Origin: Bacteroidales bacterium
Lineage (GTDB): Bacteria > Bacteroidota > Bacteroidia > Bacteroidales > GCA-2711565
Length of the DNA stretch: 64,000 bases
NCBI GenBank assembly: GCA_028280405.1
Contig: JANQLW010000025.1
Span: 5,905-69,904, forward strand
Direction: 5' to 3'
The notes under the pieces: model-generated
The model's database searches: none
The model's input: the letters and a program-made list of their open reading frames with translations, nothing else
What the model was told of the DNA's origin: nothing
Made by a program: the position numbers and the translations under genes
Shown: one piece after another, positions 2,158 through 38,542 of the stretch
Numbering within the stretch: the stretch's first letter is position 1
Layout of the letters: every line of letters starts with the position of its first letter

Positions 2158-3900
2158 TTAATTTTCTAGATTAGAATTGCTTTTTCTGAAAAAATATCGG
2201 TCCCCAGGATTTTGTGCAACAAACAAGGATATATCGGGGTCTAATTTTTTTATTGTTTCCGATAATTTGTTGAAATCATTTGCATGATTCAGATTAGCTC
2301 TTGGTACTACAAGCATGGGTTTTAGTTGTTGAACGATTTTTTTAAACCGTTCTTCTTGATTTTTTGTATAATGATGAATTATGAAATCACAGTGAATGTT
2401 TTTGGATTTGAGAAAGTTGATTTGGCCCTGAGAATCTATTTCATTTTGTGTAAGAAAACCTGAGTAATAAAAACTCAGTTCATCTGTTTGAATCAGATAG
2501 CCTAAGGAGCCCATTCCATATTCATCAATTGTTTCAAAGGCATAAATCTTAAGCTTTTCCTGAATAATTGAGTCCTGACCTAAAAGATAAATGGTATTTT
2601 GTCCTCCTCTCCACTGATCCCGCTTATAATGGATCAATTGAAAATTAGAAAGTTTTCCTTCCATTTTGTGAATACTTTCCTGATCTGTTCCGGTTCCATG
2701 ATAGGTTGAATATAAAGCAACCTTATTCAATCCACTCATCTCTTCCTGATTAAGAAATCCATTTGCTATCCTTGGTTGATCAGCCGGACGCCCTCTGTTC
2801 TCATTATCAAAAATGAAGAAATGATGCCGGGTTTTTATGGCCCAGCCCCTGTTTTGCAGTGCCCAAATCAATGCTTGGCCAGGCTTCAAGTCTGTATTAA
2901 TATCGTAATTATAAGTGTTAGGGATGTTACGGTTTGAATTCATTTTTGTGTAAAGTTCCAGGCCGGTTTTAATATGCCCATAATACCTGGCATAATCAAA
3001 AGCCGTTTTTGATCGACCGTCTTTAAGACATGGATCTATACCCGATCTTAAATATAGTTTTACTAAATCAGTATAACCTTTTATTGCGGCCAAATGAAGT
3101 AAGCTTTGTTTGTTTTTATTTGTCTGGCAAATAAGTGCAGGATATTGTTGAAGTATTTTACGTGCTGTTTTAAAATAGCCCTGTCGTGTTACTAATTCAA
3201 TTAGTGATTGACCATTAGGTAGTTTTAGATTTGTTTGTGCACCGGCATTGATTAATATTTCTGAAATCATTTCTTTAGAATCATTACCTGAACTTATCGC
3301 ATAATATAAAGGAAAATTTCCTTTTGGATCCTTTTGGTTTACATCGGCTCCATTTTTTATCAGCAATTTCGTACTTTCATAGAAACCTCTCAGACAAGCA
3401 ATATTTAGTGCTTGCCCGATCCGGCTTGATGCCGATATATCTGCTTTAGCATCAAGCAATAATTTGATTATCTCTGTGCGATTGAAAAAAGTGGCGCGAT
3501 GTAAAGGTGTTCCAAAAACTGGGCTTTGAATATTTATATTTGCACCATGAGTAATCAAGAGCTGTACTATTGTTGCATTCGTGTTTTCTGCTGCAAAATG
3601 TAAAGCTGATCGTCCGTATTTGTCTTGTAGATTGGGGTCTGCATTTAACTTAAGCAAATATTTTACAGCCTCTATACCCTGTTTAGTAACTGCTAACATG
3701 AGTATTGAAGTCCCGGTGGATGAAGTAACATTGATCTGAGATGGATCACTTTGTAAGACTTTAATAGCTCCTTCAATATCTTTATGGCTTAATATTTCTT
3801 TAATATCCTGTGCAGAAAGTTTTATTCCCAGAATAATGAATAAGAGACTGATAATTAATCGTAACTTTTTTCGTTTTGGTAAACTAATTGGAGTATTCAT
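2158..3900 (-). CDS. Secreted ankyrin-repeat protein with an unassigned ~250-aa C-terminal domain
   Basis: 580 aa. Signal peptide. About 8 ANK-type repeats (e.g. GRSALHFAAENTNATIVQLLITHGANIN, KQSLLHLAAIKGYTDLVKLYLRSGIDP). The C-terminal half is not recognisable by eye. Confidence 0.85.
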   Translation of the reverse strand: MNTPISLPKRKKLRLIISLLFIILGIKLSAQDIKEILSHKDIEGAIKVLQSDPSQINVTSSTGTSILMLAVTKQGIEAVKYLLKLNADPNLQDKYGRSALHFAAENTNATIVQLLITHGANINIQSPVFGTPLHRATFFNRTEIIKLLLDAKADISASSRIGQALNIACLRGFYESTKLLIKNGADVNQKDPKGNFPLYYAISSGNDSKEMISEILINAGAQTNLKLPNGQSLIELVTRQGYFKTARKILQQYPALICQTNKNKQSLLHLAAIKGYTDLVKLYLRSGIDPCLKDGRSKTAFDYARYYGHIKTGLELYTKMNSNRNIPNTYNYDINTDLKPGQALIWALQNRGWAIKTRHHFFIFDNENRGRPADQPRIANGFLNQEEMSGLNKVALYSTYHGTGTDQESIHKMEGKLSNFQLIHYKRDQWRGGQNTIYLLGQDSIIQEKLKIYAFETIDEYGMGSLGYLIQTDELSFYYSGFLTQNEIDSQGQINFLKSKNIHCDFIIHHYTKNQEERFKKIVQQLKPMLVVPRANLNHANDFNKLSETIKKLDPDISLFVAQNPGDRYFFRKSNSNLEN

Positions 3901-15054: not shown

Positions 15055-15085
15055 AAAAGTCCCGATAAAATCGGGACTTTTTTAT
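15055..15085. terminator. Bidirectional rho-independent-type hairpin
   Basis: AAAAGTCCCGA-taaaa-TCGGGACTTTTTT. A-run and T-run flank a 7-bp GC-rich stem. It abuts the stop of the minus-strand gene 15085..16542. Confidence 0.75.
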
Positions 15086-16542
15086 TATAATTTGAACCAA
15101 TCTTTAATAAGTCCTGTTTTATCTTCAGGTTCATGTTTATGCCTGAATTCATTTGTCTGATTATTATAGATATAATCTTTAGCCCATTCTTTATGATGAT
15201 TATTCACCTGCTTAATGGCCTCAATGGTAAAATGTAGTTCTTTATTTGTCATGATGGGGTGCAGCGATAAACGAATCCATCCGGGTTTCTCTGTTAAATC
15301 ACCTGAATTGATCTTCTTCGTGATCTCATGAGAGTCATCATAACTTACATCTAATAGATAATGGCCATAAGTCCCTGCACAGGCACATCCCCCTCTAACC
15401 TGAATTCCAAATCTGTCATTCAATAATTTCACAACCAAATTAAAGTGTATGCCCTCAAGATAGAATGAGAAAATTCCTAATCTGTTTTCAACATTATCAG
15501 CAAGAATGTGCAAACCTTCTATCTTTCTCAGTTCTTTAAATGCAATTTTAGTTAGTTGAGTTTCTCTTTTATGAATGTTTCTGGTACCCATTTGATTTTT
15601 AACTTCGATGGAAAGAGCTGCACGAATTGTTTGAAGGAATGGGGGGGTACCGCCATCCTCACGGGTTTCAATATCATCAATGTATTTGTATTCTCCCCAT
15701 GGGTTGGTCCAGTCTACAGTTCCTCCTCCGGGATTATCTGGAGTTGTTGTGGTATATAGAGAAGAATCAAATACCAAAATTCCGGGAGTTCCAGGCCCAC
15801 CTAAAAATTTATGTGGTGAGAAGAAGATGGCGTCTAATTTCTCCATCGGATCTTCCGGGTGCATATTGATATCAACATAAGGAGCAGAAGCAGCATAGTC
15901 AATAAAACAAACGCCGCCGTATTCATGCATAATTTTCGCCATTTCATGAACAGGTAAAATAATACCTGTAACATTGGAGCAAGCAGAAAAAGATCCGATC
16001 TTAAACTGTCTGTCTTTATAAATTTGAAGTAATCCTCTTAATTTATTCAAATCAACCAAAAGATCATCACCCGGAGGTATAATTACAACATCCACATTTG
16101 TTTCATACCAGGAAGTTTGATTTGAGTGATGCTCCATATGTGTGATAAATACGACCGGCCTTTCATTATCAGAAGGACATTTACAACTGGGAGCCTGTTG
16201 TCCTTTTAAGCCCATAAATCGTTGTAATTTAGAAATAACGGAAGTCATGCCGGATCCTGCAGAAATAATCACATCATTCTCTCCGGCATTCACATGTTGC
16301 TTAATGAGTTTTTGTGCCCAATGGTAAGATTTGGTCATGAGTGTTCCTGTTTCGGCTGTTTCAGTATGTGTGTTGGCAACCCAGGGGCCAAAAACTTTGT
16401 TCATTTGTTTTTCGATAGGAGCATACAACCTACCACTGGCAATCCAATCTGCATATAATAATTTCTTCTTGCCATAAGGGGTTTTGATTTTTAGATTGTT
16501 TCCTATAACGTTTTTTTTGAACTTCTTAAAGTGTTTTTCCAT
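15085..16542 (-). CDS. Class V aminotransferase-fold PLP-dependent enzyme (cysteine desulfurase/selenocysteine lyase-like)
   Basis: 485 aa. PLP-lysine context FFSPHKFLGGPGTPGILV. Class V fold pattern (ITHMEHHSN...). Confidence 0.8.
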   Translation of the reverse strand: MEKHFKKFKKNVIGNNLKIKTPYGKKKLLYADWIASGRLYAPIEKQMNKVFGPWVANTHTETAETGTLMTKSYHWAQKLIKQHVNAGENDVIISAGSGMTSVISKLQRFMGLKGQQAPSCKCPSDNERPVVFITHMEHHSNQTSWYETNVDVVIIPPGDDLLVDLNKLRGLLQIYKDRQFKIGSFSACSNVTGIILPVHEMAKIMHEYGGVCFIDYAASAPYVDINMHPEDPMEKLDAIFFSPHKFLGGPGTPGILVFDSSLYTTTTPDNPGGGTVDWTNPWGEYKYIDDIETREDGGTPPFLQTIRAALSIEVKNQMGTRNIHKRETQLTKIAFKELRKIEGLHILADNVENRLGIFSFYLEGIHFNLVVKLLNDRFGIQVRGGCACAGTYGHYLLDVSYDDSHEITKKINSGDLTEKPGWIRLSLHPIMTNKELHFTIEAIKQVNNHHKEWAKDYIYNNQTNEFRHKHEPEDKTGLIKDWFKL

Positions 16543-28839: not shown

Positions 28840-29370
28840 CTAAAACCATATATATGAAGTATGCTCTAATGGATTTCTTGTTATCCAGTCATTATCCTTA
28901 AAATCAGACCACCAATTATTATAAATGTCTCTAACTATCAATATGTCTGTCCCTTTGAGTCCATTGTATCTTTCACTTTCAATCAATGAAGTATCAATTA
29001 GGTATGGGTCAAGAGAACCATATCCATAACCATTTCTTATACCCTCAACAGTCCAAAGCAAACATTCCCCTAAAATACAATAATTCCTACCATGAGGAAA
29101 AGGTGTTCGTGATGAAATAGGATTAAAAGGGTAAGCTGCAATATGAGATGTATCTTTTGAAAAATCAATAAGAGCTTGAATGTGTCTTTCAGTAAAATTC
29201 GGCATTAAAAGCCATAAATTTTCGCCATTCTCTCCTTTTTCATATTGAGAATAGGTTTCTGTTTTAATTTGATTTACAAATTTTTCAACATCGGGATTAT
29301 CAATGTCGAAGTCGTCTTTTTCACAGCTAATTAAAAAAAGAATCAAGATAATAAAGAATAAGTTTTTCAT
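28840..29370 (-). CDS. Hypothetical lipoprotein
   Basis: 176 aa. Lipobox LILFLISC. Confidence 0.65.
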   Translation of the reverse strand: MKNLFFIILILFLISCEKDDFDIDNPDVEKFVNQIKTETYSQYEKGENGENLWLLMPNFTERHIQALIDFSKDTSHIAAYPFNPISSRTPFPHGRNYCILGECLLWTVEGIRNGYGYGSLDPYLIDTSLIESERYNGLKGTDILIVRDIYNNWWSDFKDNDWITRNPLEHTSYIWF

Positions 29371-29426
29371 AATTGACAGTTTTTTATTAGATGTAATTAT
29401 CTATGTCATGGTTGCGTTTTTTTGTT

Positions 29427-29464
29427 TGTGCGATGGAATGTGCGAATTGCAAATGTGCTTGGCT
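29427..29464. repeat. Left copy of the ~37-bp direct repeat bracketing the five-gene cassette
   Basis: TGTGCGATGGAATGTGCGAATTGCAAATGTGCTTGGCT. It shares TGTGCGAT, ATGTGCG, TTGCAAATGTG and TTGGCT blocks with 37008-37043. An 18-nt core (29440-29457 vs 37009-37026) differs at 1 position. Confidence 0.7.
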
Positions 29465-29549
29465 GTGTGGGCTAGGTATTCATCCATTTTCCTTTCTCAA
29501 ATGAATCATTTGAATCTTTTATGATGTTTGTTTGAGCCAATTGAGCCAT

Positions 29550-30878
29550 TTATGAGCCAATTAGTTTATATGCAGTTCCTTTTCCAACATCACCGATTCT
29601 CTCTAATAGTTTTTTATCCTCCAACAACTCCTTTAAATCACGAGTTGCAGTAGCTTTTGAAACATCGCAAATTTCTTGATATATTGAGTTTGTTATTTTA
29701 CCATTTTTCTTAGTGTATAAAACAGCTTTGATTTGACGCTCATTTATACCAAGTTGCTTCAAAGAAGTTTCATTATAAATATCCTTTCTAAAAACTACCC
29801 CAAAATCCTTTCCATTATTTTCAAATTCAGGCTTTTGTAAACCGTGCTCTTTACATTGTTCAATAATTTTAATTGTTCCTCGCCCCTAAGATTCAACATG
29901 CCCTGCTCTAAAAAAAGCATTAGCAATATCAGGATTAAAAGGAATCGATGAATGTTTTTGCATTAAATTTTCGACTGTCCAATCTTCCGGTAACTGTCCA
30001 TAATTCCAAATCATAAGTTTATCATCATAAACGCTTATTTGAATTGGAACACCCATTGAATAATCTTTATGAGTAAGGGCGTTTAAAATTGCTTCCCGAA
30101 CAGCATCTTTTGGGTATTCGTAAGTTTCAACTCTGTGTATACCTTCATACGAGATAATTGCCTTGATGTACTTAGTGAAAAGTAAGTCAATTTTCTTTTC
30201 TACTTGTTCAAAAAGATTTCCCTTTACTTCGTCTTGAAATATCAATTCTGTATCTGACTGAAAATAACCGATTTTTATATATGCTCCTGTAAAATATTTT
30301 TCAGGGTCGGGATGAAAAAGCAATACAGATGCGCGTTTTAGATATGGTTTCTCAGTTAATTTTAAATTTTCAAGAATACTGATGTTTTGCTCAGTTAAAA
30401 CACTTTCGTCAATTCTCTTACTGATTATTGCCCTTTTCTTGAAAAACTCAAATGTTTCATTTTTTAAATCATCAACAGAAACATTAGGAACAGGAACGCC
30501 GTCCCATTTCTTTCCTTTCTTTTCAAGCATAAATTTATCTAAAGCAGCACCTTTTAGTTCTTGCTTAGTACTTCCGCTTCTATAATGATATTGTCCTTTG
30601 TAATTAACTGAAAAGGGTTGTGGCTCAACAACAATTTCAAGAAAGTTTCCTTTTTCTGTTTCAAGCAGATTAACATCTACCAAAATACCAAGAACATCTC
30701 TTACTTTATTTGGAATATCTTCAAGTAGCTTTTTTGCGTTATTAATACTGACAACTTCTCCTTTGTCGTTTTTGCCAATGTATATTTTACCTCCCTGTGC
30801 ATTTGCAAAACCGCAAATCCATTTTAGGTATTCATCACGCCAACTTTCTTTCCATTCTATGTTTTGGTTTTCTGCCAT
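29550..30878 (-). pseudogene. AlbA_2 (Schlafen-like) + HATPase_c_4 + wHTH putative DNA-binding/ATP-binding protein, interrupted by one in-frame TAG
   Basis: Track ORFs 29886..30878 and 29550..29762 are in the same frame. The gap reads through as ...AFFRAGHVES*GRGTIKIIEQCKEHGLQKPEFENNGKDFGVVFRKDIYNETS-LKQLGINERQ... The N-terminus MAENQNIEWKESW...GFANAQGGKIYIG is typical of AlbA_2 proteins. Starts 3 nt after the upstream gene's stop. Confidence 0.75.
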
Positions 30879-30881
30879 ATG

Positions 30882-32456
30882 TTATTTACTTTCCATTGTT
30901 TTCCAGAATTGTCTAATCTTAATGGTTTTAGGTTCATCAAGGTTTATTAATCCAAGCCCTGAGTCAAGCCTGTTAATTTCATTGATGAGTTTATGTTCAC
31001 TCCTCGGTGTTCCAACAAACGCTTTAATCATTTTTGGGTCTTTGTTTTGAATGTTTAAGCAAATCGGTAGTTTTACTTGAGAAGCAAAGTCAAAATCTTT
31101 TGTTTTATAATCTTCTACACCTTGTGATAGCATTACAACAATAACTCCTTTTGAGCGAAGAAGTCTTAATAAATCTTCAAGAGCTTTACGAGCATTTTTA
31201 TTCTTTAAATAGATATGTGCTTCATCAATGACAATCACATATCTCAGAGGCATAATATTTTCTTTCGGTTCGGAATCATTCGCTGAACTAAAAAAGAAAT
31301 TAAAATATCTCAGAAGTAGAAAAACACATAATTGTCTTAAAGTGTCAGATAATGTTGGCGGTAGATTCAAATAAATACTTTTCTCAATGATGTTTTCTGA
31401 AATATCATCTGAAAACAAACCACTTGACAAGTCCTTAATAGCAGCAAGTAAAGTATCAGGTTTTGTTTTAGTTGCTTCGTAATATTCTTCAAGAGCTTCT
31501 GAAAGTTCTGTCATATTTGGATAAGTGTCGCCCTTTTCTTCAATCAAGTTTGTAATTACTGATTGCAAGATGTGTTTCTGTGAAGTTCCCATTTGCGGAA
31601 CAAATGTTCCAATCGTGTCAACAAAAGCTTTGATACTAAAGGTTTTTTGTCTTTCTCCCTCACTAATATTAATTGAGCTAAGAGGATTAAAATTAAATCC
31701 ATCATTTAGAATGTCAATAAACTCACAGTTAGTTTTATCTAAGAATAGTTTTAATTGTGAAGCATTACCTTCTCCTTTATAATCAAAGAAAATGTATTTA
31801 AGTTGATTTTCAGTATTAGCAGAGATTTGATATAAAACATCTTTAATCAGCTGAGTTTTACCAGATCCTGCCATGCCCGCAATAGCAATATTCCTGTTGT
31901 CAAATTCCGTTAAATCATTTATTTTTATTTCAACTTCTTTGTTTTCTTCCGTTGTACCAAGAATAAAAGATAATGGTTCTAAATATTCTTTAACTGCTGT
32001 TTGCTGCTGAACACCACTTGCAATTGAAACAGTATTAGATTGTAAATCAAGCCCATTTTTTACAAGTTTCATTAACAAAGCAATATGACCACCGCTTGTA
32101 AAGTCTGTTTTAGAAAGCTTTTTATCAATTTCTGACAAACCATGGTCTAAATGAAGCTTAAACAGCTTTGAAAAATCCTCCTCGTAAAGTGATTGATTGT
32201 AATGTTTATCAAGTATTGCTTTATAAATTGGATAGTTAGTACGGTTTTCTACAATCGTTCCAAACAAGCCTCGGTCATCTCTGAAATCTCTACCATCTGA
32301 ACTTGGTACTACATCCACATTAACATCAAAATGCTTATTTGTTTGAACACTGTAAGCAAATGCCAATCTTGGCACAACTCCCTCCGAATTGAATTCATAA
32401 ATCGACTTTATTCTTTCGATTACTTCATCGTTTTGTTTACTAATTCTTATTCTCAT
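30882..32456 (-). CDS. DndE-like N-terminal domain fused to an FtsK/HerA (DUF87-type) P-loop ATPase
   Basis: 524 aa. N-terminus MRIRISKQNDEVIERIKSIYEFNSEGVVPRLAFAYSVQ resembles the DndE pattern (r.s....e.l..lk......pN...R.A...S). Walker A IAIAGMAGSGKTQL. Walker B RYVIVIDEAHIYL. Later VIVVMLSQ. Overlaps the upstream gene by 17 nt. Confidence 0.75.
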   Translation of the reverse strand: MRIRISKQNDEVIERIKSIYEFNSEGVVPRLAFAYSVQTNKHFDVNVDVVPSSDGRDFRDDRGLFGTIVENRTNYPIYKAILDKHYNQSLYEEDFSKLFKLHLDHGLSEIDKKLSKTDFTSGGHIALLMKLVKNGLDLQSNTVSIASGVQQQTAVKEYLEPLSFILGTTEENKEVEIKINDLTEFDNRNIAIAGMAGSGKTQLIKDVLYQISANTENQLKYIFFDYKGEGNASQLKLFLDKTNCEFIDILNDGFNFNPLSSINISEGERQKTFSIKAFVDTIGTFVPQMGTSQKHILQSVITNLIEEKGDTYPNMTELSEALEEYYEATKTKPDTLLAAIKDLSSGLFSDDISENIIEKSIYLNLPPTLSDTLRQLCVFLLLRYFNFFFSSANDSEPKENIMPLRYVIVIDEAHIYLKNKNARKALEDLLRLLRSKGVIVVMLSQGVEDYKTKDFDFASQVKLPICLNIQNKDPKMIKAFVGTPRSEHKLINEINRLDSGLGLINLDEPKTIKIRQFWKTMESK

Positions 32457-34533
32457 AGCTTTGGAAATAACCAGGTTTAAAAATAGATTTCTTGTTTTCG
32501 TTAACTATCAAATATGATTTAGAAACCTTATCCGAAATTGATTTATATCGGCGTGGTGTAATCTCATTATTAGTAGCTAATAATACAACCTGACTTGATA
32601 AATCAGGGTAATAGTTATTTAAAATATTCTCAATATGTTCATGGTCTAATCTACCTAAAGGTGTATCGATGAATATTGGGAAATTCTGAATTGATTCGCT
32701 GAGAATAGCTTTAATTAAGCAAGAAATAAAAATCTGCTTTTCGCCTGTAGAGAAACTTTCTTTTGGTATCTCATTACCTTCTGAATCTAAAATTGAAACT
32801 TTAAGCCCCTTCCCGTCAGGAAGAATGTCAATTCTGGAATCTTCAATAAAACTTGAACCTTCATGTTGCATTTTATGCATCAACTTTTGAAGTTCAGCCA
32901 ATAGATTATTCGCTAATGCTTCTTTTTTAGAACGTTTCTGATTGTCTATAAAAGTTTGTAAAGATTCAATATACTTTTTCGCTTTAGCAATCTTGTTTTT
33001 TATCAATTGATTACCACTACTTTTTTGAAGCAGAATGTTATATTTTTGGTTTAAACGAACATTGTCTTTCAAAAGCTTGTCCTTCTCGTTTTCAAGTGCA
33101 CCATTCTCCCCAATTATTTTTTCCAGTTTTCTCTCCGCTTCATCTTTCAAAGTAACTGTTTCTAAAATAGTTTCATCTTCCAAATCAGAATCAATCATTT
33201 TTATTTGTTTATCCTTTTCAGTTATTGCGAGTTGAACAGCATTAAACTCTGAAATTGTAGATTCAAAAACCTCTTTTGATTGTTGTTTTAATAGCTGAGA
33301 AGTTTTTAATACTAGTTCTTTATCTGCATTACTTAAATCAAGCTCAAATTCAAATATGTTTTCAGATTCTTTGACCTCAAAAAGTTCATTTAGTAAACTC
33401 TGAGCTTTATCTGAATAAAATATTTTGTTTTTGAATGACATTGAACCATCTTCAGGTTCGGGCGGTTGATTAAATAATTTCTCAATAAAATTATCAAGCT
33501 TTTTCTTAACTACCTCATTATTTTCAATATCTGATACAGATTGTACTTGCAAATCCAGTTGTTCAAGAACTTCTTCAATTTTACCACTAAGCATTGCCAA
33601 AGGTGCAAGTTCACTCAACTCATTGAAACGTTTTTCCAGTTCTTCTTTTTTAGATTGAAGTGCTGTAAGTTCGCTAAACAAGTCCTCTCTATTTAGAGAT
33701 GTTGTTTCCTTTCGGCTATTCTTATTCAAAAAGGTTTGGTATTCTTTGATTTTATCTTTTAACTCTTTAATACTGGTTTCATTAAGAGCTGATTTTAAAT
33801 CAATATCTTCAACTTTTCCTTTATTTAACTCAACGGCCTTTTCTGTATTTATAATTTGCTCCTTAATATTCGTGTTCGCACCCTCTTTTTTCAGGTTGTT
33901 ACTGTAAACTGAAATATCATCTTTAAGATTTTCGTATAAATCAAGACCAAGAAGTTTACCCAAAGCGTCATTTAGTACGTTTCCTTCATCTTTGGTCGAA
34001 AGTTCTGCCCACGAAGCAATTTTTTCAGCATCGAAGAATACGAATTTCGCAGCTTCTAAAGGAATCAGGTAATCATTTATAAAACTTATTTTGTCTTCAA
34101 TTTCAGTAAACAACTCTTCCCTCTGAGAATTCAACACCGATAAGCTTTCCTCTATTTTACTTATATTAAATACACGCTTAATTACAATCTTATTATCAGA
34201 AACTTTAAGGTTAGCAGGGTAATCAATTTCCTCAAACTGTATTTCAATCGAAAAATCAGTATTGTTTTCGTTTTTTGAAGTCCAGTTTAAGGATTGCTTT
34301 ATAAACTTCTGGTAATTAGTTTCTTTTTGAACCTCTCGCTTGAAGTTTTCATCAATTTGGGTAATTTTCTCACCGTAAAGACACCAAACAATCGAAATTA
34401 GAAAATTTGTTTTTCCGAAACCATTTTTACCTCCAATCAAGACAATGTTTTGATTTTCTTGAGTCTGCAAATCAATTTCAATAGTACCGTAGTACTGACG
34501 AAAATTGTCTAATATTATTTTACTTATTCTCAT
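32440..34533 (-). CDS. DndD-like SMC/ABC-type ATPase with a long coiled-coil insert
   Basis: 697 aa. MRISKIILDNFRQYYG N-terminus. Walker A GGKNGFGKT (residues 34-42). About 350 aa of heptad-rich coiled coil. C-terminal FSTGEKQ signature and IFIDTPLGRLD...QVVLLATNNEI, the DTPLGRLD-type Walker B/D-loop block I associate with DndD. Confidence 0.85.
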   Translation of the reverse strand: MRISKIILDNFRQYYGTIEIDLQTQENQNIVLIGGKNGFGKTNFLISIVWCLYGEKITQIDENFKREVQKETNYQKFIKQSLNWTSKNENNTDFSIEIQFEEIDYPANLKVSDNKIVIKRVFNISKIEESLSVLNSQREELFTEIEDKISFINDYLIPLEAAKFVFFDAEKIASWAELSTKDEGNVLNDALGKLLGLDLYENLKDDISVYSNNLKKEGANTNIKEQIINTEKAVELNKGKVEDIDLKSALNETSIKELKDKIKEYQTFLNKNSRKETTSLNREDLFSELTALQSKKEELEKRFNELSELAPLAMLSGKIEEVLEQLDLQVQSVSDIENNEVVKKKLDNFIEKLFNQPPEPEDGSMSFKNKIFYSDKAQSLLNELFEVKESENIFEFELDLSNADKELVLKTSQLLKQQSKEVFESTISEFNAVQLAITEKDKQIKMIDSDLEDETILETVTLKDEAERKLEKIIGENGALENEKDKLLKDNVRLNQKYNILLQKSSGNQLIKNKIAKAKKYIESLQTFIDNQKRSKKEALANNLLAELQKLMHKMQHEGSSFIEDSRIDILPDGKGLKVSILDSEGNEIPKESFSTGEKQIFISCLIKAILSESIQNFPIFIDTPLGRLDHEHIENILNNYYPDLSSQVVLLATNNEITPRRYKSISDKVSKSYLIVNENKKSIFKPGYFQSYENKN

Positions 34534-34714
34534 TTTCTAACGCCTTTTCAATTTCTGAATCAATTGTTTGATGAATATAATGATTTCGCTTTTGCAGTTT
34601 TTTCAAACGCTCGGATTGTAGTAGTTTATCCATTGATTTAAGATCAACTCCGTTTTCTTTACAGATTGAGTTTAGTTCCTCAATATGTTTTTTCTTTATC
34701 TTATCAATTTCCAT
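34520..34714 (-). CDS. Small charged helical protein, translationally coupled on both sides
   Basis: 64 aa (MEIDKIKKKHIEELNSICKENGVDLKSMDKLLQSERLKKLQKRNHYIHQTIDSEIEKALENENK). Overlaps the upstream gene by 11 nt and the downstream gene by 14 nt. Confidence 0.6.
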   Translation of the reverse strand: MEIDKIKKKHIEELNSICKENGVDLKSMDKLLQSERLKKLQKRNHYIHQTIDSEIEKALENENK

Positions 34715-36986
34715 ATATGTCTTGTATTAATTCTTTTGTTTCGATATACATACTTTCATGTTTTGGAGTTAATTCTCCATTTTCATACTGTTTAGTTTGG
34801 CGATAGTAAAAATGATAAAGATTGGACTCATCTTCATTTTTTGCGCTTGGCAACCTTTTATTCAACTTAATGAATTGATTCAATTCAACATATGAAGAAT
34901 CCATATTTTTCGGGTTTCGCCTAACAAGTTTTACATAGCCGTATTTTTCAACTAATTCATTTATTTTATCACTCTTACTTTTTTCAATTCTATTTTTGTT
35001 TGCATTATTAAGTTGAACATTCATAAAACGATACAATTTTTGCTCTTCTTCACTCCCCGAAGAAAAAGGCAGTCTATTATTATCATTAGTAAACTTCGAT
35101 AGCAATTCAAAATTTTCCTTCCATGTTCTGCGAACTATCTTTGTATTATTGTTTCTAATGAACTCATCATTGTATTCCTTGGCAATTAATCCAATATGGT
35201 AATTTTTAAAGAAAAGAAAGCGTCTGTTTTCAGCAGACTTTAGGTTGTAAAGTAAATTTTTAGATGTTACGGAAGGTCTATATTGAGAGACATATTCTCT
35301 TATATCATCAATATGTTTTGGTGTTTCGAATTGAATTAGAAATTCCTCTGCAATATCATGCATTGTACCTCCTTTAACGGTTTTATCTTTTTCCCATTCA
35401 CGTAACCCGTAAGTACTGCTTCTTCCAAAATAAATTATTTCCGGGTCTCTTTGGCAACTACCTCTCAATGCTTCTGCACTTTTCGTAACATTTGGGTGCT
35501 TGGAAATAAGAATATCATATATCTGATAAATATCTAATGGCTCATTCTTTTCCTTTAAAATATCATAAACATATTCAATTACCTGCTTTTTAGTATTTCT
35601 TCTAAAGGTTATTTGGTCTAATGTATCAATGGTTATTTCAAATTCATTGAAAATAATATGCTCAGCTATTTGTGTAACTTTGATAAAGTCTGATTCAAAT
35701 CTTTCTTTCAGAAAAGAAGTTAAATAAGCTTCAAAATGGAAAGAATAATCTTCTTCTATCCTGTTTGATAGCCTATTATTTATATCAATTGCAAGGGATT
35801 CAAAATTGAATATGCTTTCTATTTCTTTGTTTACTATATAAATTGATCTCCACTTATATGCTCCACTTTTCGGTTTTGGACCATAAAAAGCACAGGTTTC
35901 AAAATTACCAATTAAGGTATGAGTTTTACTTAAAATTATGGAAAGTATCTTTGTAACAAAGATATTGTTGTATTGAACAGATTCTTTTTGTTGGATTTCC
36001 TCTATTAGATTTTCATCAATTACTATAAATTCTGAATTAACATCAATTCCATAAAGGTTTAATGCATCAAATTCAAGTCCTTTTAAAAAACTGAATTCGA
36101 TATCAATTTTCTCAAGTATCTTATTTCTAATCTGACGAGTTCTTTCTCTCGTGATTCCAACTTGAGAACCAATATTCTCTAGTGTTTCAGTTTTGTAATC
36201 TAACCAAAAGTTAAAGCCTTTCTTGAATATCTCTAGCTCCTTTTCTTTAAACCTAAATATTTTTGAAATTAACGTATCTATTGTTTTAAAGATAGGTAAC
36301 CCATTCTTGGAATCATAATTTTCCCAAATTTGAATAATATCATTTGGGTTAAGGCAAAACTTTCTGCGTAAGTAAGTGTTAAATAACTCAATCGTTAATT
36401 CGTCATCATTTTCAAAAAGCTGAACAATCTCTATCTGCTCACGGATTTCTTTAAAGAATTGGAATAGCTCATCAACTGATTTTTTGCCAATATTTTTAAT
36501 TTTTCCTAAATCGTATCTTGAGTCAATCAAGATTTCTTTGAATCCACGAATCGTCAAGTTTGAATCCGATATTTTTTCAATTGCGTTTAGACTTCTAACT
36601 GATAGATTGCTTGCTTGGGATTCAATAAGGTTATTTAGAATCTTCTTTTGTCTTACTGTTAAAGAATCAATTTGCTTTTCAATTGGATTTTCGGGCTTTT
36701 CCTTGATTGGTCTTGAAATGAAATCATCATATTTTTGGCATAATTTAATAAGTTCTGTATTCGATTTTTGTCCGCAATTCCTTAATCCTAAAAAATCATT
36801 GTTCTCCCAAAAGTAGTTTAGTATTGCGAGTAAATCATTAAGACCATTCCATTCGCAAACATTTGACGAGCGAACACTCAGGTTCTCTTTATGAGTTAAT
36901 TCTCTTAAACTAATATTTTCTTTATCAACGTCCATTCTCAAATATACAAAATCCTTTGTGGGTTGGGAAATTGCACTCTTTTGCAA
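34704..36986 (-). CDS. Large multi-HTH DNA-binding protein: 2x RpoA-alphaCTD-like HhH, sigma-70 region-4-like HTH, 2x HARE-HTH-like, 2x helicase-associated (HA) repeats
   Basis: 760 aa. LSVRSSNVCEWNGLNDLL...LRNCGQKSNTELIKL and LSVRSLNAIEK...IKNIGKKSVDELFQF (alpha-CTD-like). ENIGSQVGITRERTRQIRNKILEKI (sigma r4-like). VIEYVYDILKEKNEPLDIYQIYDIL...YFGRSSTYGLREW (HARE-HTH-like). C-terminal W..NF..L..F...N.RLP...EE.KLY.F repeats (HA-like). No catalytic motif seen. An alternative start is MDVDKEN at ~36935. Confidence 0.75.
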   Translation of the reverse strand: MQKSAISQPTKDFVYLRMDVDKENISLRELTHKENLSVRSSNVCEWNGLNDLLAILNYFWENNDFLGLRNCGQKSNTELIKLCQKYDDFISRPIKEKPENPIEKQIDSLTVRQKKILNNLIESQASNLSVRSLNAIEKISDSNLTIRGFKEILIDSRYDLGKIKNIGKKSVDELFQFFKEIREQIEIVQLFENDDELTIELFNTYLRRKFCLNPNDIIQIWENYDSKNGLPIFKTIDTLISKIFRFKEKELEIFKKGFNFWLDYKTETLENIGSQVGITRERTRQIRNKILEKIDIEFSFLKGLEFDALNLYGIDVNSEFIVIDENLIEEIQQKESVQYNNIFVTKILSIILSKTHTLIGNFETCAFYGPKPKSGAYKWRSIYIVNKEIESIFNFESLAIDINNRLSNRIEEDYSFHFEAYLTSFLKERFESDFIKVTQIAEHIIFNEFEITIDTLDQITFRRNTKKQVIEYVYDILKEKNEPLDIYQIYDILISKHPNVTKSAEALRGSCQRDPEIIYFGRSSTYGLREWEKDKTVKGGTMHDIAEEFLIQFETPKHIDDIREYVSQYRPSVTSKNLLYNLKSAENRRFLFFKNYHIGLIAKEYNDEFIRNNNTKIVRRTWKENFELLSKFTNDNNRLPFSSGSEEEQKLYRFMNVQLNNANKNRIEKSKSDKINELVEKYGYVKLVRRNPKNMDSSYVELNQFIKLNKRLPSAKNEDESNLYHFYYRQTKQYENGELTPKHESMYIETKELIQDIYGN

Positions 36987-37007
36987 ATTTCGGTCTGTCG
37001 ATTAGCC

Positions 37008-37043
37008 TGTGCGATTTGCAAATGTGTGCAATGTGCGTTGGCT
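37008..37043. repeat. Right copy of the ~37-bp direct repeat bracketing the five-gene cassette
   Basis: TGTGCGATTTGCAAATGTGTGCAATGTGCGTTGGCT. See 29427-29464. Lies 22-57 nt upstream of the ATG at 36986 (minus strand). Confidence 0.7.
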
Positions 37044-37492
37044 TCTCCAACTGCCCCGAAGGGTAGAAGCGGGTAGGCAAAAACTAATTTTTTTTGCACC
37101 AACCTTTCAATCAATGAGTCAGTATTTTCTATCCGTTTTTTCAAATTTTATAATCAGTTTCATTGTTTGCTGTTTCATTCTTTTGCTTGCAGTTAACGGT
37201 TGTGCCTATTTAAATTACACATAAACTTCTAAAATCAAGATATAAACACAATTTAAACAATGCTTAAGTAAACTGTATATAGTAAAATAAGTTATTCGAG
37301 TAAATTAGTTATTGTTTCTTGCAAGTTCCTTACAATATAAGAAAATTATTGGATTTTTAAATCTTTTATTATGCCTTCCAGCTTTTGATCTCAAATAGCT
37401 TCTGTTTGAGCAACATCTTCTTTTTGTTGCTAATTTAATTTTTCTTATTTTAGTTATTGATACCATGTTTTTTTTAGTTAAAAATAAAAAAT

Positions 37493-38542
37493 ATGAATAG
37501 TGAGATAAGTATTCTTATAATCTCTGGTGTAGGTATCCTGAATGGTCTGGCTTTTGGTGTATATCTTATTTTTACTAAAATTGGCAACAGGAAAGCCAAT
37601 ATCTTTTTAGGTTTGTTTGTAATATTGATTTCGATACGGTTTATAAGATCAGTAAATTTTTATCTTACACCTGTCTATAATCATACAGAGTTTTTTATAA
37701 GCTCAACGTGTTTTTTACTTTTAGGGCCGGTACTATATTTATATGTAAAAGCCAATCTGGGAGATAAGTTGCAGTTAAAAGCTTATGATTTTCTACAGAT
37801 ATTTATTTTGCTTCCTTTACTACTTATTTCTTTAGACTTACCTGATTATTTGCCAATATTTAAATTACTTACCTATTCTTCTTTAGCTATTCTGTTAACT
37901 TATACGATTCTAGCTTTAAATAAACTTTTAAAAGTTATCAGGCGTAAAAAGAAAAATAGAAAGTTCATTACCATATCACAGATAAATTGGATTAGAAACC
38001 TGTTGTTCCTTATTATTATCAATACTTTTCTATATGGAATAAATCTTGAATATAGAATTGTACCAAATATTTTTGGAGCCACCTCTTATGCTATAATATT
38101 ATATGCGATCTTTATTTATTGGAGTAAGCTACAATTTTTACGGAAGCAACGATCAACTCTCGAAAAATATAAAAATGCTGTTTTTGATAAAAGAAAAGCT
38201 CAGGAACATATTGATGTTCTGCTCTTAAAAATAGAAAAGGAAGAATTATATAAAGATTATACCATTACCTTGCCAGAACTCGCACGCATTCTTTCAGTAC
38301 CCCAACATTACCTGAGTATGATTATCAATCTGAATTTAGGCAAAAACTTCTCTGAATTTATGAATGATTATCGTATTGATGAAGCTTGTAGAATGTTAAG
38401 AGATGAGAAATATGCAAGCGAATCTGTACAATCAATTGCCTATACTTCCGGATTTAATTCAATTTCTGTTTTTTATACTTGTTTTAAGGAGCATACAGGA
38501 GTAACACCAACAGAGTATAGGAAAAAAAATCCTGATTTATAA
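37493..38542 (+). CDS. Membrane-anchored AraC-family transcriptional regulator
   Basis: 349 aa. Multiple N-terminal TM helices plus an AraC double HTH (ITLPELARILSVPQHYLS..., GFNSISVFYTCFKEHTGVTPTEYRKK). Same architecture as 25941..27062. Confidence 0.85.
   Translation: MNSEISILIISGVGILNGLAFGVYLIFTKIGNRKANIFLGLFVILISIRFIRSVNFYLTPVYNHTEFFISSTCFLLLGPVLYLYVKANLGDKLQLKAYDFLQIFILLPLLLISLDLPDYLPIFKLLTYSSLAILLTYTILALNKLLKVIRRKKKNRKFITISQINWIRNLLFLIIINTFLYGINLEYRIVPNIFGATSYAIILYAIFIYWSKLQFLRKQRSTLEKYKNAVFDKRKAQEHIDVLLLKIEKEELYKDYTITLPELARILSVPQHYLSMIINLNLGKNFSEFMNDYRIDEACRMLRDEKYASESVQSIAYTSGFNSISVFYTCFKEHTGVTPTEYRKKNPDL

Follow-up and report, generated by a model that had tools for sequence, protein, structure and literature searches.

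Can the fusion of a DndE-like domain to a motor ATPase explain how a Dnd-type cassette would act on DNA without phosphorothioation (PT) chemistry? The question is raised by a stretch of 64,000 nucleotides (nt) from a Bacteroidales bacterium (GTDB lineage GCA-2711565; contig JANQLW010000025.1, positions 5,905 to 69,904), hereafter the window, which contains on its minus strand, at 30882..32456, a gene for such a fusion, here named DndE-HerA. A preliminary description of this gene had seen in it a reader of DNA nicks or lesions placed on a ring translocase, an architecture that would account for PT-free action. Our results partly support that interpretation: the fusion and the PT-free cassette are right, and the causal link drawn between them is wrong. 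The residual interest of the locus lies in an uncharacterised cassette devoid of both nuclease and DndC, and in the relationship of its small protein, Sp-DndD, to the C-terminal tail of DndC. The open reading frame (ORF) of the fusion and its parts are as follows (aa, amino acids; AF2, AlphaFold2).

30882..32456, minus strand: DndE-HerA ORF, complete, 524 aa, ATG start (ORF listing)
32040..32456, minus strand: DndE domain, residues 1-139 (PF08870, profile matches to solved DndE, AF2)
31980..32039, minus strand: flexible linker, residues ~140-159 (AF2 confidence profile, alignment A1)
30885..31979, minus strand: P-loop ATPase domain of the HerA/FtsK/VirB4 class, residues ~160-524
31854..31877, minus strand: Walker A, GMAGSGKT, residues 194-201 (alignment of 70 sequences)
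31215..31238, minus strand: Walker B, VIVIDEAH, residues 407-414 (alignment A2)
31122..31157, minus strand: candidate Arg finger R434 and sensor-1 Q445 (RSKGVIVVMLSQ)

Two alignments support these assignments: A2 comprises 70 members from across the family, with identities as low as ~20%, and A1 comprises closer relatives and was used for the search of related loci, the 70-member set being too divergent for that purpose. The N-terminus of the ORF, which reads MRIRISKQNDEVIERIK in the ORF listing, and the ATPase motifs quoted at the outset are all present, with AGMAGSGKT at residues 193-201, VIVIDEAH at 407-414 and VVMLSQ at 440-445 in A1. The DndE likeness of the N-terminus, for which a lack of significant profile or structural similarity had been named as counter-evidence, proved to be significant in profile comparisons and far beyond chance. 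Pfam PF08870 (DndE) matches residues 2-115 with E=5.4e-12 (46.4 bits, gathering cutoff 25) and is found in 58 of the 70 diverse members, at best with E=3e-20. A profile of the N-terminal domain built from 38 family members retrieves from the PDB all three solved DndE proteins (7x4e_A, 7.7e-18; 5wtu_A, 2.9e-8; 4lrv_A, 1.2e-7) and nothing else of significance. A phmmer search of the PDB with the single sequence of residues 1-158 gave no genuine match, only spurious ankyrin/DARPin ones, and the similarity to DndE therefore sits at the profile level. As the model for the stand-alone DndE equivalog (TIGR03184) gives 23.9 bits, below its cutoff of 71.85, while PF08870 is passed, this is a DndE-family domain rather than an equivalog.

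The AF2 model of DndE-HerA, built on 70 diverse homologs, has a mean predicted local distance difference test score (pLDDT) of 92.2. Its DndE domain (pLDDT ~90) shows a strand at residues 3-4 and helices at 7-20 and 27-38 in the first half, and a strand at 57-58 and helices at 75-85, 92-115 and 123-139 in the second, that is, S1a-H1a-H2a followed by S1b-H1b-H2b and a C-terminal helix, H2b being long. The domain is thus modelled as two tandem ribbon-helix-helix (RHH) units with an elongated H2b and a C-terminal helix, and the layout of residues 1-139 matches the topology given by Rakesh et al. (PMC10853773), who find a double RHH arrangement in all DndE proteins. In their comparative analysis, DndE is interpreted as a sequence reader with two tandem RHH domains, and the predicted secondary structure fits this proposal. 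The nick or lesion reader invoked initially keeps the backing of a published view, but it is only one view among others. Between the two domains of the fusion, the linker is poorly conserved, with indels in A1, and its residues 142-149 are disordered in the model (pLDDT <50).

The covalently linked C-terminal part belongs, as had been claimed, to the HerA/FtsK/VirB4 class of P-loop ATPases. It matches Pfam AAA_10 at 5e-9 and DUF87 above its cutoff; among the 70 members, DUF87 is recognised in 53, TrwB_AAD_bind in 41 and FtsK_SpoIIIE in 30. The closest relative of residues ~160-524 is the C-terminal ATPase of DndH/DptH. The PADLOC DndH model matches the domain with its C-terminus at 6.9e-26 (only model positions 1317-1713 being covered), phmmer against the PDB finds 7es4, the DptH/DndH C-domain, at 5.4e-9, and the same structure ranks first in a Foldseek search with the AF2 model (E=8.5e-20, template modelling (TM) score 0.83 on the target), followed by VirB4 (4ag5, 1.2e-12), HerA (4d2i, 1.6e-11) and then TrwK and TrwB (4e-8). 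Residues G194, G199, K200 and T201 of Walker A, D411 and E412 of Walker B, and R431, R434 and Q445 are nearly invariant in the 70 sequences, and R434 and Q445 align with an Arg and a Gln of 7es4. The HerA/FtsK clade is distinguished by a Gln that serves as sensor-1 where core strand 4 ends and by an Arg finger shortly before it (PMC10853773), roles to which Q445 and R434 correspond; the window protein also shows GSGKT (197-201) and DE (411-412). The ORF at 30882..32456 is a genuine covalent fusion of DndE and a HerA/FtsK-class ATPase. Membership in the MADS defence type was considered and rejected: the PADLOC mad8 match (5e-21) spans the ATPase domain only, and the operon architecture of MADS is unrelated.

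The fusion is old and widespread, and no accident of this genome. A word-indexed search returned 544 homologs, of which the best 120 are all ~524 aa long with both domains; those of the 120 that bear a name are annotated as 'DndE family protein' or 'DNA sulfur modification protein DndE'. An exhaustive search of 1.84 billion cluster representatives (clusters at 50% identity) gave 478 clusters at E<=1e-3, of which 184 reach E<=1e-10, and many of the 478 are 500-540 aa long and align over residues ~2 to ~520 with 22-32% identity. The nearest relative, at 93% identity, comes from a Bacteroidales metagenome-assembled genome (MAG). In one-genome-per-species data the close family amounts to 66 loci, predominantly in Bacteroidota (Labilibaculum, Maribellus, Flavobacterium, Tenacibaculum, Chryseobacterium, Saprospiraceae and Chitinophagaceae) and, beyond them, in Desulfococcaceae, Gammaproteobacteria, Ignavibacteria and others. 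Plasmid and phage collections yielded no copy of the fusion, only ATPase domains of ~23% identity.

The domain fusion is also already known. Clade 3 of the HerA/FtsK ATPases of Rakesh, Aravind and Krishnan (NAR 2024; PMC10853773) is fused to DndE, stands beside a DndD-type ABC ATPase and is related to the ATPase of DndH; the window protein shares this architecture of one polypeptide beside DndD, by its domains, its neighbour and its DndH likeness. For this group Rakesh et al. refer to Krishnan et al. (NAR 2020, 48:10045), the work in which Sp-DndD was defined. The window cassette departs from the published description in that DndC is missing, its tail being represented only by Sp-DndD, and in that a protein with multiple helix-turn-helix (HTH) modules, protein A, is added. 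In the literature searched, no experimental work on the DndE-HerA family was found. The fusion itself, published, composed of Pfam domains and carried by NCBI under the name 'DndE family protein', adds nothing new, and attention shifts to the genes that accompany it.

34704..36986, minus strand: protein A, first gene of the cassette (760-aa ORF; called product 743 aa, ATG at 36935)
34520..34714, minus strand: Sp-DndD, 64 aa (PF20306 at 2.1e-8; overlaps both adjoining genes)
32440..34533, minus strand: DndD, ABC ATPase (TIGR03185; PADLOC DndD 1.4e-92)

The genes run in the order A, Sp-DndD, DndD and, last, DndE-HerA, with successive overlaps of 11, 14 and 17 nt, and the cassette is a translationally coupled, self-contained four-gene operon. 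DndD matches TIGR03185 over its full length (274.5 bits, cutoff 245.85) and lies directly upstream of the fusion gene, with the 17-nt overlap, so that the pairing of DndE with an ABC ATPase of the DndD/CxC kind is preserved. The four-gene order is kept in essentially all of the 66 loci that have enough flank, DndD being syntenic in nearly all, and when all flanking ORFs of 67 loci were clustered no fifth conserved gene emerged. Scans with model libraries detected in the cassette no nuclease, methylase, DndA, DndB or DndC, and no DndB-like (ParB/DGQHR) protein.

That the local cassette lacks PT chemistry was thus correctly perceived. Throughout the 64 kb of the window there is no DndC, DndA or DndB, Sp-DndD being the sole DndC-like element: a tblastn search with two DndC queries matches only the Sp-DndD gene. 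DndC is likewise absent within 10 kb of the cassette in all of the ~50 loci of this Sp type. Complete genomes with a cassette of this type include those of Flavobacterium flavipigmentatum (NZ_CP087133.1) and Tenacibaculum sp. A30 (NZ_CP195160.1). Of the components of a DndABCDE system, the window therefore offers DndD, in addition to the DndE-family domain, and neither DndC nor DndA nor DndB; the absence of DndA is a weak feature, since a housekeeping IscS could substitute for it. A class-V aminotransferase 15 kb from the cassette (15085-16542, minus strand) is not DndA (27.9 bits against a cutoff of 480, and 138 against 475 for SufS) and is probably unrelated to the cassette. We infer that the cassette cannot write phosphorothioate by itself.

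What does not hold is that the fusion explains this state. In loci L052, L054, L057, L058, L061 and L062 (35-43% identity) a full-length DndC lies between A and DndD (TIGR03183 at 448 bits, cutoff 290), and L070 also has full-length DndC-DndD directly upstream of the fusion, which in all these loci is thus found downstream of a complete DndC-DndD pair. A metagenomic relative of 32% identity shows the order PAPS_reduct(DndC)-DndD-DndE/HerA. Neighbour joining (NJ) of the fusion proteins gave a tree, rooted at the midpoint and lacking support values, in which the Sp-type clade of the window is nested within DndC-type loci, a suggestive placement. Since the fusion occurs together with full DndC in relatives and the DndC-less clade is nested among them, the fusion appears to predate the loss of DndC, and hence does not explain it. 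The fusion also works inside the apparently PT-writing systems of these relatives. The DndC-type cassette of L062 (2458-16711), from a gammaproteobacterial MAG, sits inside a NADH dehydrogenase operon, between nuoD and nuoE-F-G-H, and consists of a MAD2-like protein of 382 aa, A, DndC, DndD and DndE-HerA.

The origin of Sp-DndD is indicated by several comparisons. The protein shows weak matches to the C-terminus of DndC in three model libraries, those in NCBIfam and PADLOC covering the last ~55 positions of the DndC models (E ~1e-3). When 45 Sp-DndD sequences were compared with seven DndC sequences by hhalign, residues 3-60 of Sp-DndD aligned to DndC 366-423 of 425 with a probability of 97.1% (E=6.1e-11). 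A hidden Markov model (HMM) of Sp-DndD picks up, in turn, two DndC tails (L070 and L073) and the small protein encoded ahead of DndD in each of L073, L074 and L075. In L073 (187-7939), a canonical DndC-DndD set with a stand-alone DndE of 135 aa stands directly before a second set, made up of a small protein of 60 aa, another DndD and DndE-HerA. This small protein can be recognised as a paralog of the DndC tail next to it, and the locus suggests that a writer and a non-writer module work side by side. In the case of E. coli B7A DndCDE, it was described in 2025, from AlphaFold 3 models, pull-downs and mutants, that the head of DndD binds DndC residues 433-482 and its coiled-coil-1 the very C-terminal helix of DndC, that the DndC changes L458D/E462A/R471A abolish DndD binding, and that coiled-coil-2 of DndD binds DndE (PMC12193691). 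We infer that Sp-DndD is a free-standing, DndD-docking tail of DndC that outlasted the loss of the catalytic domain. No statement to this effect was found in the literature searched, a search that did not include Krishnan et al. 2020. The relationship offers a testable handle on the loading or regulation of DndD and a possible explanation for the 'small proteins' of Dnd-related defence modules.

The minimal conserved unit is small protein-DndD-DndE/HerA. The distant Sp-type cassettes of L074 (3045-6823) and L075 (431-4256), at 25-31% identity, have no protein A upstream, so that protein A is confined to the lineage that includes the window cassette. All four genes of this cassette are under strong purifying selection. 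Between the window and L005 (82% nucleotide identity), the ratio of nonsynonymous to synonymous substitution rates (dN/dS) is 0.12 for A, 0.036 for Sp-DndD, 0.027 for DndD and 0.036 for DndE-HerA, and values against L004, L006 and L008 are similar; as dS is ~1-1.6, near saturation, the ratios are approximate, their direction being unambiguous. Across ~50 species-level genomes from several phyla, the ORFs have stayed intact and the ATPase motifs do not vary. Low dN/dS, invariant motifs and overlapping genes together indicate that the cassette is functional and kept by selection.

It is also horizontally mobile as a unit. The cassette is bracketed by two copies of a direct repeat.

36976..37030, minus strand: upstream direct-repeat copy, ~55 nt, core CACATTTGCAAATCGCACA at 37008-37026
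29405..29461, minus strand: downstream direct-repeat copy, core CACATTTGCAATTCGCACA at 29439-29457

The repeat is imperfect, with the core CACATTTGCAAWTCGCACA and palindromic TTTGCAAA boxes. It was found by blastn against relatives and confirmed by a pattern search; a generic repeat finder did not return it. Exactly two copies occur in the 64 kb, against 0.11 expected by chance, and the repeat is found again at cassette borders elsewhere, namely in L005 (5431 and 13025), in L007 (245 and 7803) and in L022, L026, L027, L030 and L064 (~11598), each of these loci having it downstream of the cassette. The closest genome is homologous to the window at the nucleotide level only over 30890-37191. Homology that stops at the cassette edges, the bracketing repeats and their recurrence elsewhere mark the cassette as a discrete mobile module. 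Genes that recur beside it across the 67 loci encode tyrosine integrases (10 loci), excisionase-like HTH proteins and Toprim proteins. The repeat could be an att-like recombination site or an operator. Its upstream copy lies in a conserved 5' leader/promoter region, where the 160 nt upstream of A are ~80% identical to the Maribellus loci and more conserved than the coding start of A; an Rfam scan of 29000-38000, this leader included, gave no match.

What, then, might the cassette do? We favour, with moderate confidence, a PT-independent, ATP-driven complex that scans and translocates DNA, probably directed against invading DNA. Its mechanism can be sketched from DndCDE biochemistry (PMC12193691) and from knowledge of the families. 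The DndD dimer would serve as a Rad50-like scaffold or clamp, and the DndE domain would dock on its coiled-coil-2, thereby tethering the ATPase, which probably forms rings and translocates double-stranded DNA as other HerA/FtsK/VirB4 proteins do. The double RHH of DndE would read a DNA site or, in the alternative published view, a nick. Sp-DndD would fill the surface for the DndC tail on the DndD head and coiled-coil-1, and protein A would add targeting to DNA or to transcription complexes. The output might be DndD-dependent nicking, interference of the motor with invader DNA, or recruitment of host nucleases. As the same fusion exists together with DndC, the ancestral job of the motor is most simply that of moving or loading the DndD-DndE scanning core on DNA; the motor is no substitute for PT chemistry. 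A broader proposal, that every DndD needs a peptide of the DndC-tail type, attached in writers and free in non-writers (L073 having the two forms next to each other), and that the cassette is in addition a PT-independent, nuclease-free surveillance or defence machine with Sp-DndD retained as its structural or regulatory plug, is advanced only tentatively, and we regard it as rather doubtful in this combined form.

Several points weigh against the scanning complex. The oligomeric state, translocation and the binding of Sp-DndD to DndD are all deduced by homology, and the correspondence of Sp-DndD to the 433-482 region of B7A DndC was made through HMM coordinates rather than by direct alignment. 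The analysis covers the 64-kb window, and a dndC or a complete dnd cluster may lie elsewhere in the genome. In the NJ tree, deeper branches alternate between DndC-type and Sp-type, so that the number and direction of changes are uncertain there. Finally, the cassette has no recognisable effector, and its neighbours in the window are not defence genes; a defence role is suggested by the context, namely mobility, the likeness to the DndH ATPase and the location of relatives beside restriction-modification or helicase genes.

Other explanations account for part of these observations. The cassette could be a PT reader, a restriction-like partner that senses or polices the marks of a separate dndCDE (or ssp) cluster elsewhere in the genome, much as PbeABCD/CxC modules stand beside DndCDEA. 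The arrangement in L073, where DndC-DndD-DndE directly precedes a small protein-DndD-DndE/HerA module whose small protein is a paralog of the DndC tail, supports this idea; tandem DndD- and CxC-anchored modules are frequent (PMC10853773), and the ATPase has its nearest relative in DndH, which serves the DndFGH restriction complex as its motor. We nevertheless hold it to be unlikely, as DndC is missing from the surroundings of the ~50 Sp-type loci and from the window, the cassette moves alone as a four-gene unit, and it contains neither a nuclease nor a PT-binding domain of the winged-helix-turn-helix (wHTH)/SBD type. Still less probable is that PT is written after all, with a DndC acting in trans and housekeeping IscS supplying the sulfur chemistry to the DndD-DndE/HerA core. 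It is true that housekeeping cysteine desulfurases can replace DndA (PMC10853773), that DndC is present in relatives having this fusion, and that a generic class-V aminotransferase is encoded at 15085-16542; yet the scores of this enzyme stay far under the cutoffs for both DndA and SufS, housekeeping PP-loop ATPases are unable to stand in for DndC (PMC10853773), which the 64 kb do not encode, and a separate docking-tail mini-protein maintained by selection would compete with a DndC in trans for DndD.

The ATPase and the RHH fold also recall DNA transfer, and the protein might be imagined as a TraY-like double-RHH relaxosome domain on a VirB4/TraG/TrwB-type coupling ATPase of an integrative element. 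The double-RHH architecture is common to DndE and TraY (PMC10853773), NCBIfam VirB4 matches at 5e-12, with weaker TraC and TraD matches, TrwB_AAD_bind is found in 41 of the 70 members, and integrase and Toprim genes recur nearby. A conjugative role is nonetheless very improbable: the VirB4 and TraC scores are at least tenfold under their cutoffs, the top match in sequence and in structure is the DndH C-domain and not an ATPase of a type IV secretion system (T4SS), and the N-terminal profile matches only DndE in the PDB. Moreover, the obligate partners of the fusion come from the Dnd machinery (a DndD that scores above its cutoff, and either DndC or the DndC tail), the cassette is free of relaxase and T4SS genes, and the search of the plasmid collection did not find the fusion. 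Finally, the loss of the catalytic domain of DndC and a nonsense codon in the adjacent AlbA_2 gene of the window would be expected of a dnd cluster decaying after deletion of dndC. Such a remnant is strongly disfavoured, and is as improbable as the conjugative role, because dN/dS is 0.03-0.12 in all four genes, the 64-aa Sp-DndD included, at dS ~1-1.6, because the ORFs and ATPase motifs have remained intact in ~50 species-level genomes of several phyla, and because the compact overlapping gene layout has been kept.

The scanning complex that we favour can be set against known systems. With canonical DndCDE (E. coli B7A, S. lividans), the cassette shares a DndD above the TIGR03185 cutoff and the double-RHH fold predicted for DndE, and the interfaces of the DndC tail with DndD and of the DndD coiled-coil-2 with DndE are presumably conserved. 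It differs from them by the absence of the PP-loop/4Fe-4S domain of DndC, of DndA and of DndB, and in that its DndE carries a motor ATPase of ~365 aa, whereas stand-alone DndE is a protein of ~110-135 aa. The hallmarks of the HerA/FtsK clade are common to residues 160-524 and the C-terminal ATPase of DndH/DptH (PDB 7ES4). DndH, however, is a protein of ~1700 aa with eight domains, among them an inactive superfamily 2 (SF2) C-domain, target recognition domains (TRDs), an inactive methylase and a restriction endonuclease (REase) (PMC10853773), and the window fusion has the ATPase and none of the others; no DndF, DndG or REase was found in the cassette or its flanks, which sets it apart from DndFGH.

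The logic of the PbeABCD/CxC systems is similar, as these combine a small protein, a DndD-like ABC ATPase, a DndE cognate and an ATP-driven motor, and act, like the window cassette, beside PT writers or without them; PADLOC PbeC models even match the window's DndD at 2.4e-92. In Pbe, an SF2 helicase joined to an HKD nuclease (PbeA) acts as the motor, whereas that of the window is a nuclease-free HerA/FtsK domain on DndE. In addition, the ABC ATPase belongs to the DndD clade: it passes TIGR03185 and, unlike the CxC Zn-hook proteins, lacks a cysteine pair in the coiled-coil, its only two cysteines lying outside that region. Sp-DndD has no match to the PADLOC PbeB models, and no HKD or SF2 protein is present in the cassette, which places it outside PbeABCD/CxC. 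A HerA-class ATPase works on DNA with a Rad50-like ABC ATPase or an effector also in archaeal and bacterial HerA-NurA with Mre11-Rad50, in SIR2-HerA/Nezha, in DUF4297-HerA and in TdpAB, and the Foldseek similarity of the window ATPase to the HerA group is in the range of E=1e-11 to 1e-8. There, HerA is partnered by an effector that is a nuclease or an NADase (NurA, SIR2, DUF4297), and it has a large N-terminal HAS barrel; the window cassette has no such effector, and its HerA domain no such barrel. Found mostly in Bacteroidota, the cassette keeps the DNA-handling half of Dnd (DndD, DndE and a motor), drops the sulfur chemistry and has no nuclease, and so constitutes a natural experiment both on the DndD-DndE scanning core alone and on the cooperation of a Rad50-like ATPase with a HerA-type translocase.

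Regarding protein A, it is predicted to be an array of DNA-binding modules: two helix-hairpin-helix (HhH) units like the C-terminal domain (CTD) of the RNA polymerase (RNAP) alpha subunit, a sigma-70 region 4, tandem winged-helix/HARE-HTH and HA domains. Among 33 members of its family, Pfam recognises RNA_pol_A_CTD in 26, Sigma70_r4 in 25, HA in 12 and HARE-HTH in four, and the family profile matches in the PDB solely RNAP alpha-CTD and sigma region 4. The AF2 model, built with database homologs (pLDDT 85.8), has only weak Foldseek matches, none at E<=1e-3, with sigma region 4 and tandem winged-helix arrays as their targets. Family-wide Pfam, the PDB profile and AF2 with Foldseek showed DNA-binding modules only, with no nuclease or enzyme fold. 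The C-terminus is variable, the overall length being ~560-975 aa (alignment A3; for instance L004 4820-7747, L048 4326-7184 and L049 5095-7719), and members end in HA repeats, in homing-endonuclease-associated HNH_repeat units or, in one member, in a Death domain; this variable end resembles the ends of conflict systems. Protein A also weakly matches the sigma region 4 part of MzaA, the sigma factor of MZA defence.

Beside the cassette, one accessory gene is found that does not belong to the conserved core.

29550..30878, minus strand: AlbA_2/Schlafen + HATPase_c_4 + wHTH accessory gene (Pfam)

Apart from the window, only the Maribellus loci L006 and L007 have it beside the cassette; at all other loci it is absent from that position. 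In the window it is split into ORFs of 330 aa and 70 aa by an in-frame stop at codon 331 (29886-29888, ...GHVES*GRGT...), while its Maribellus orthologs are intact, at 441 aa, with a Trp at the stop position (...ESWGRGT...). The stop is one of three things: a nonsense mutation, the mark of a pseudogene or a sequencing error. Farther away, at 2158-3900 on the minus strand, a 580-aa protein carries ankyrin repeats similar to those of Legionella Ank effectors and to the ankyrin region at the N-terminus of MzaA (3e-18), a resemblance between repeats that is probably coincidental.

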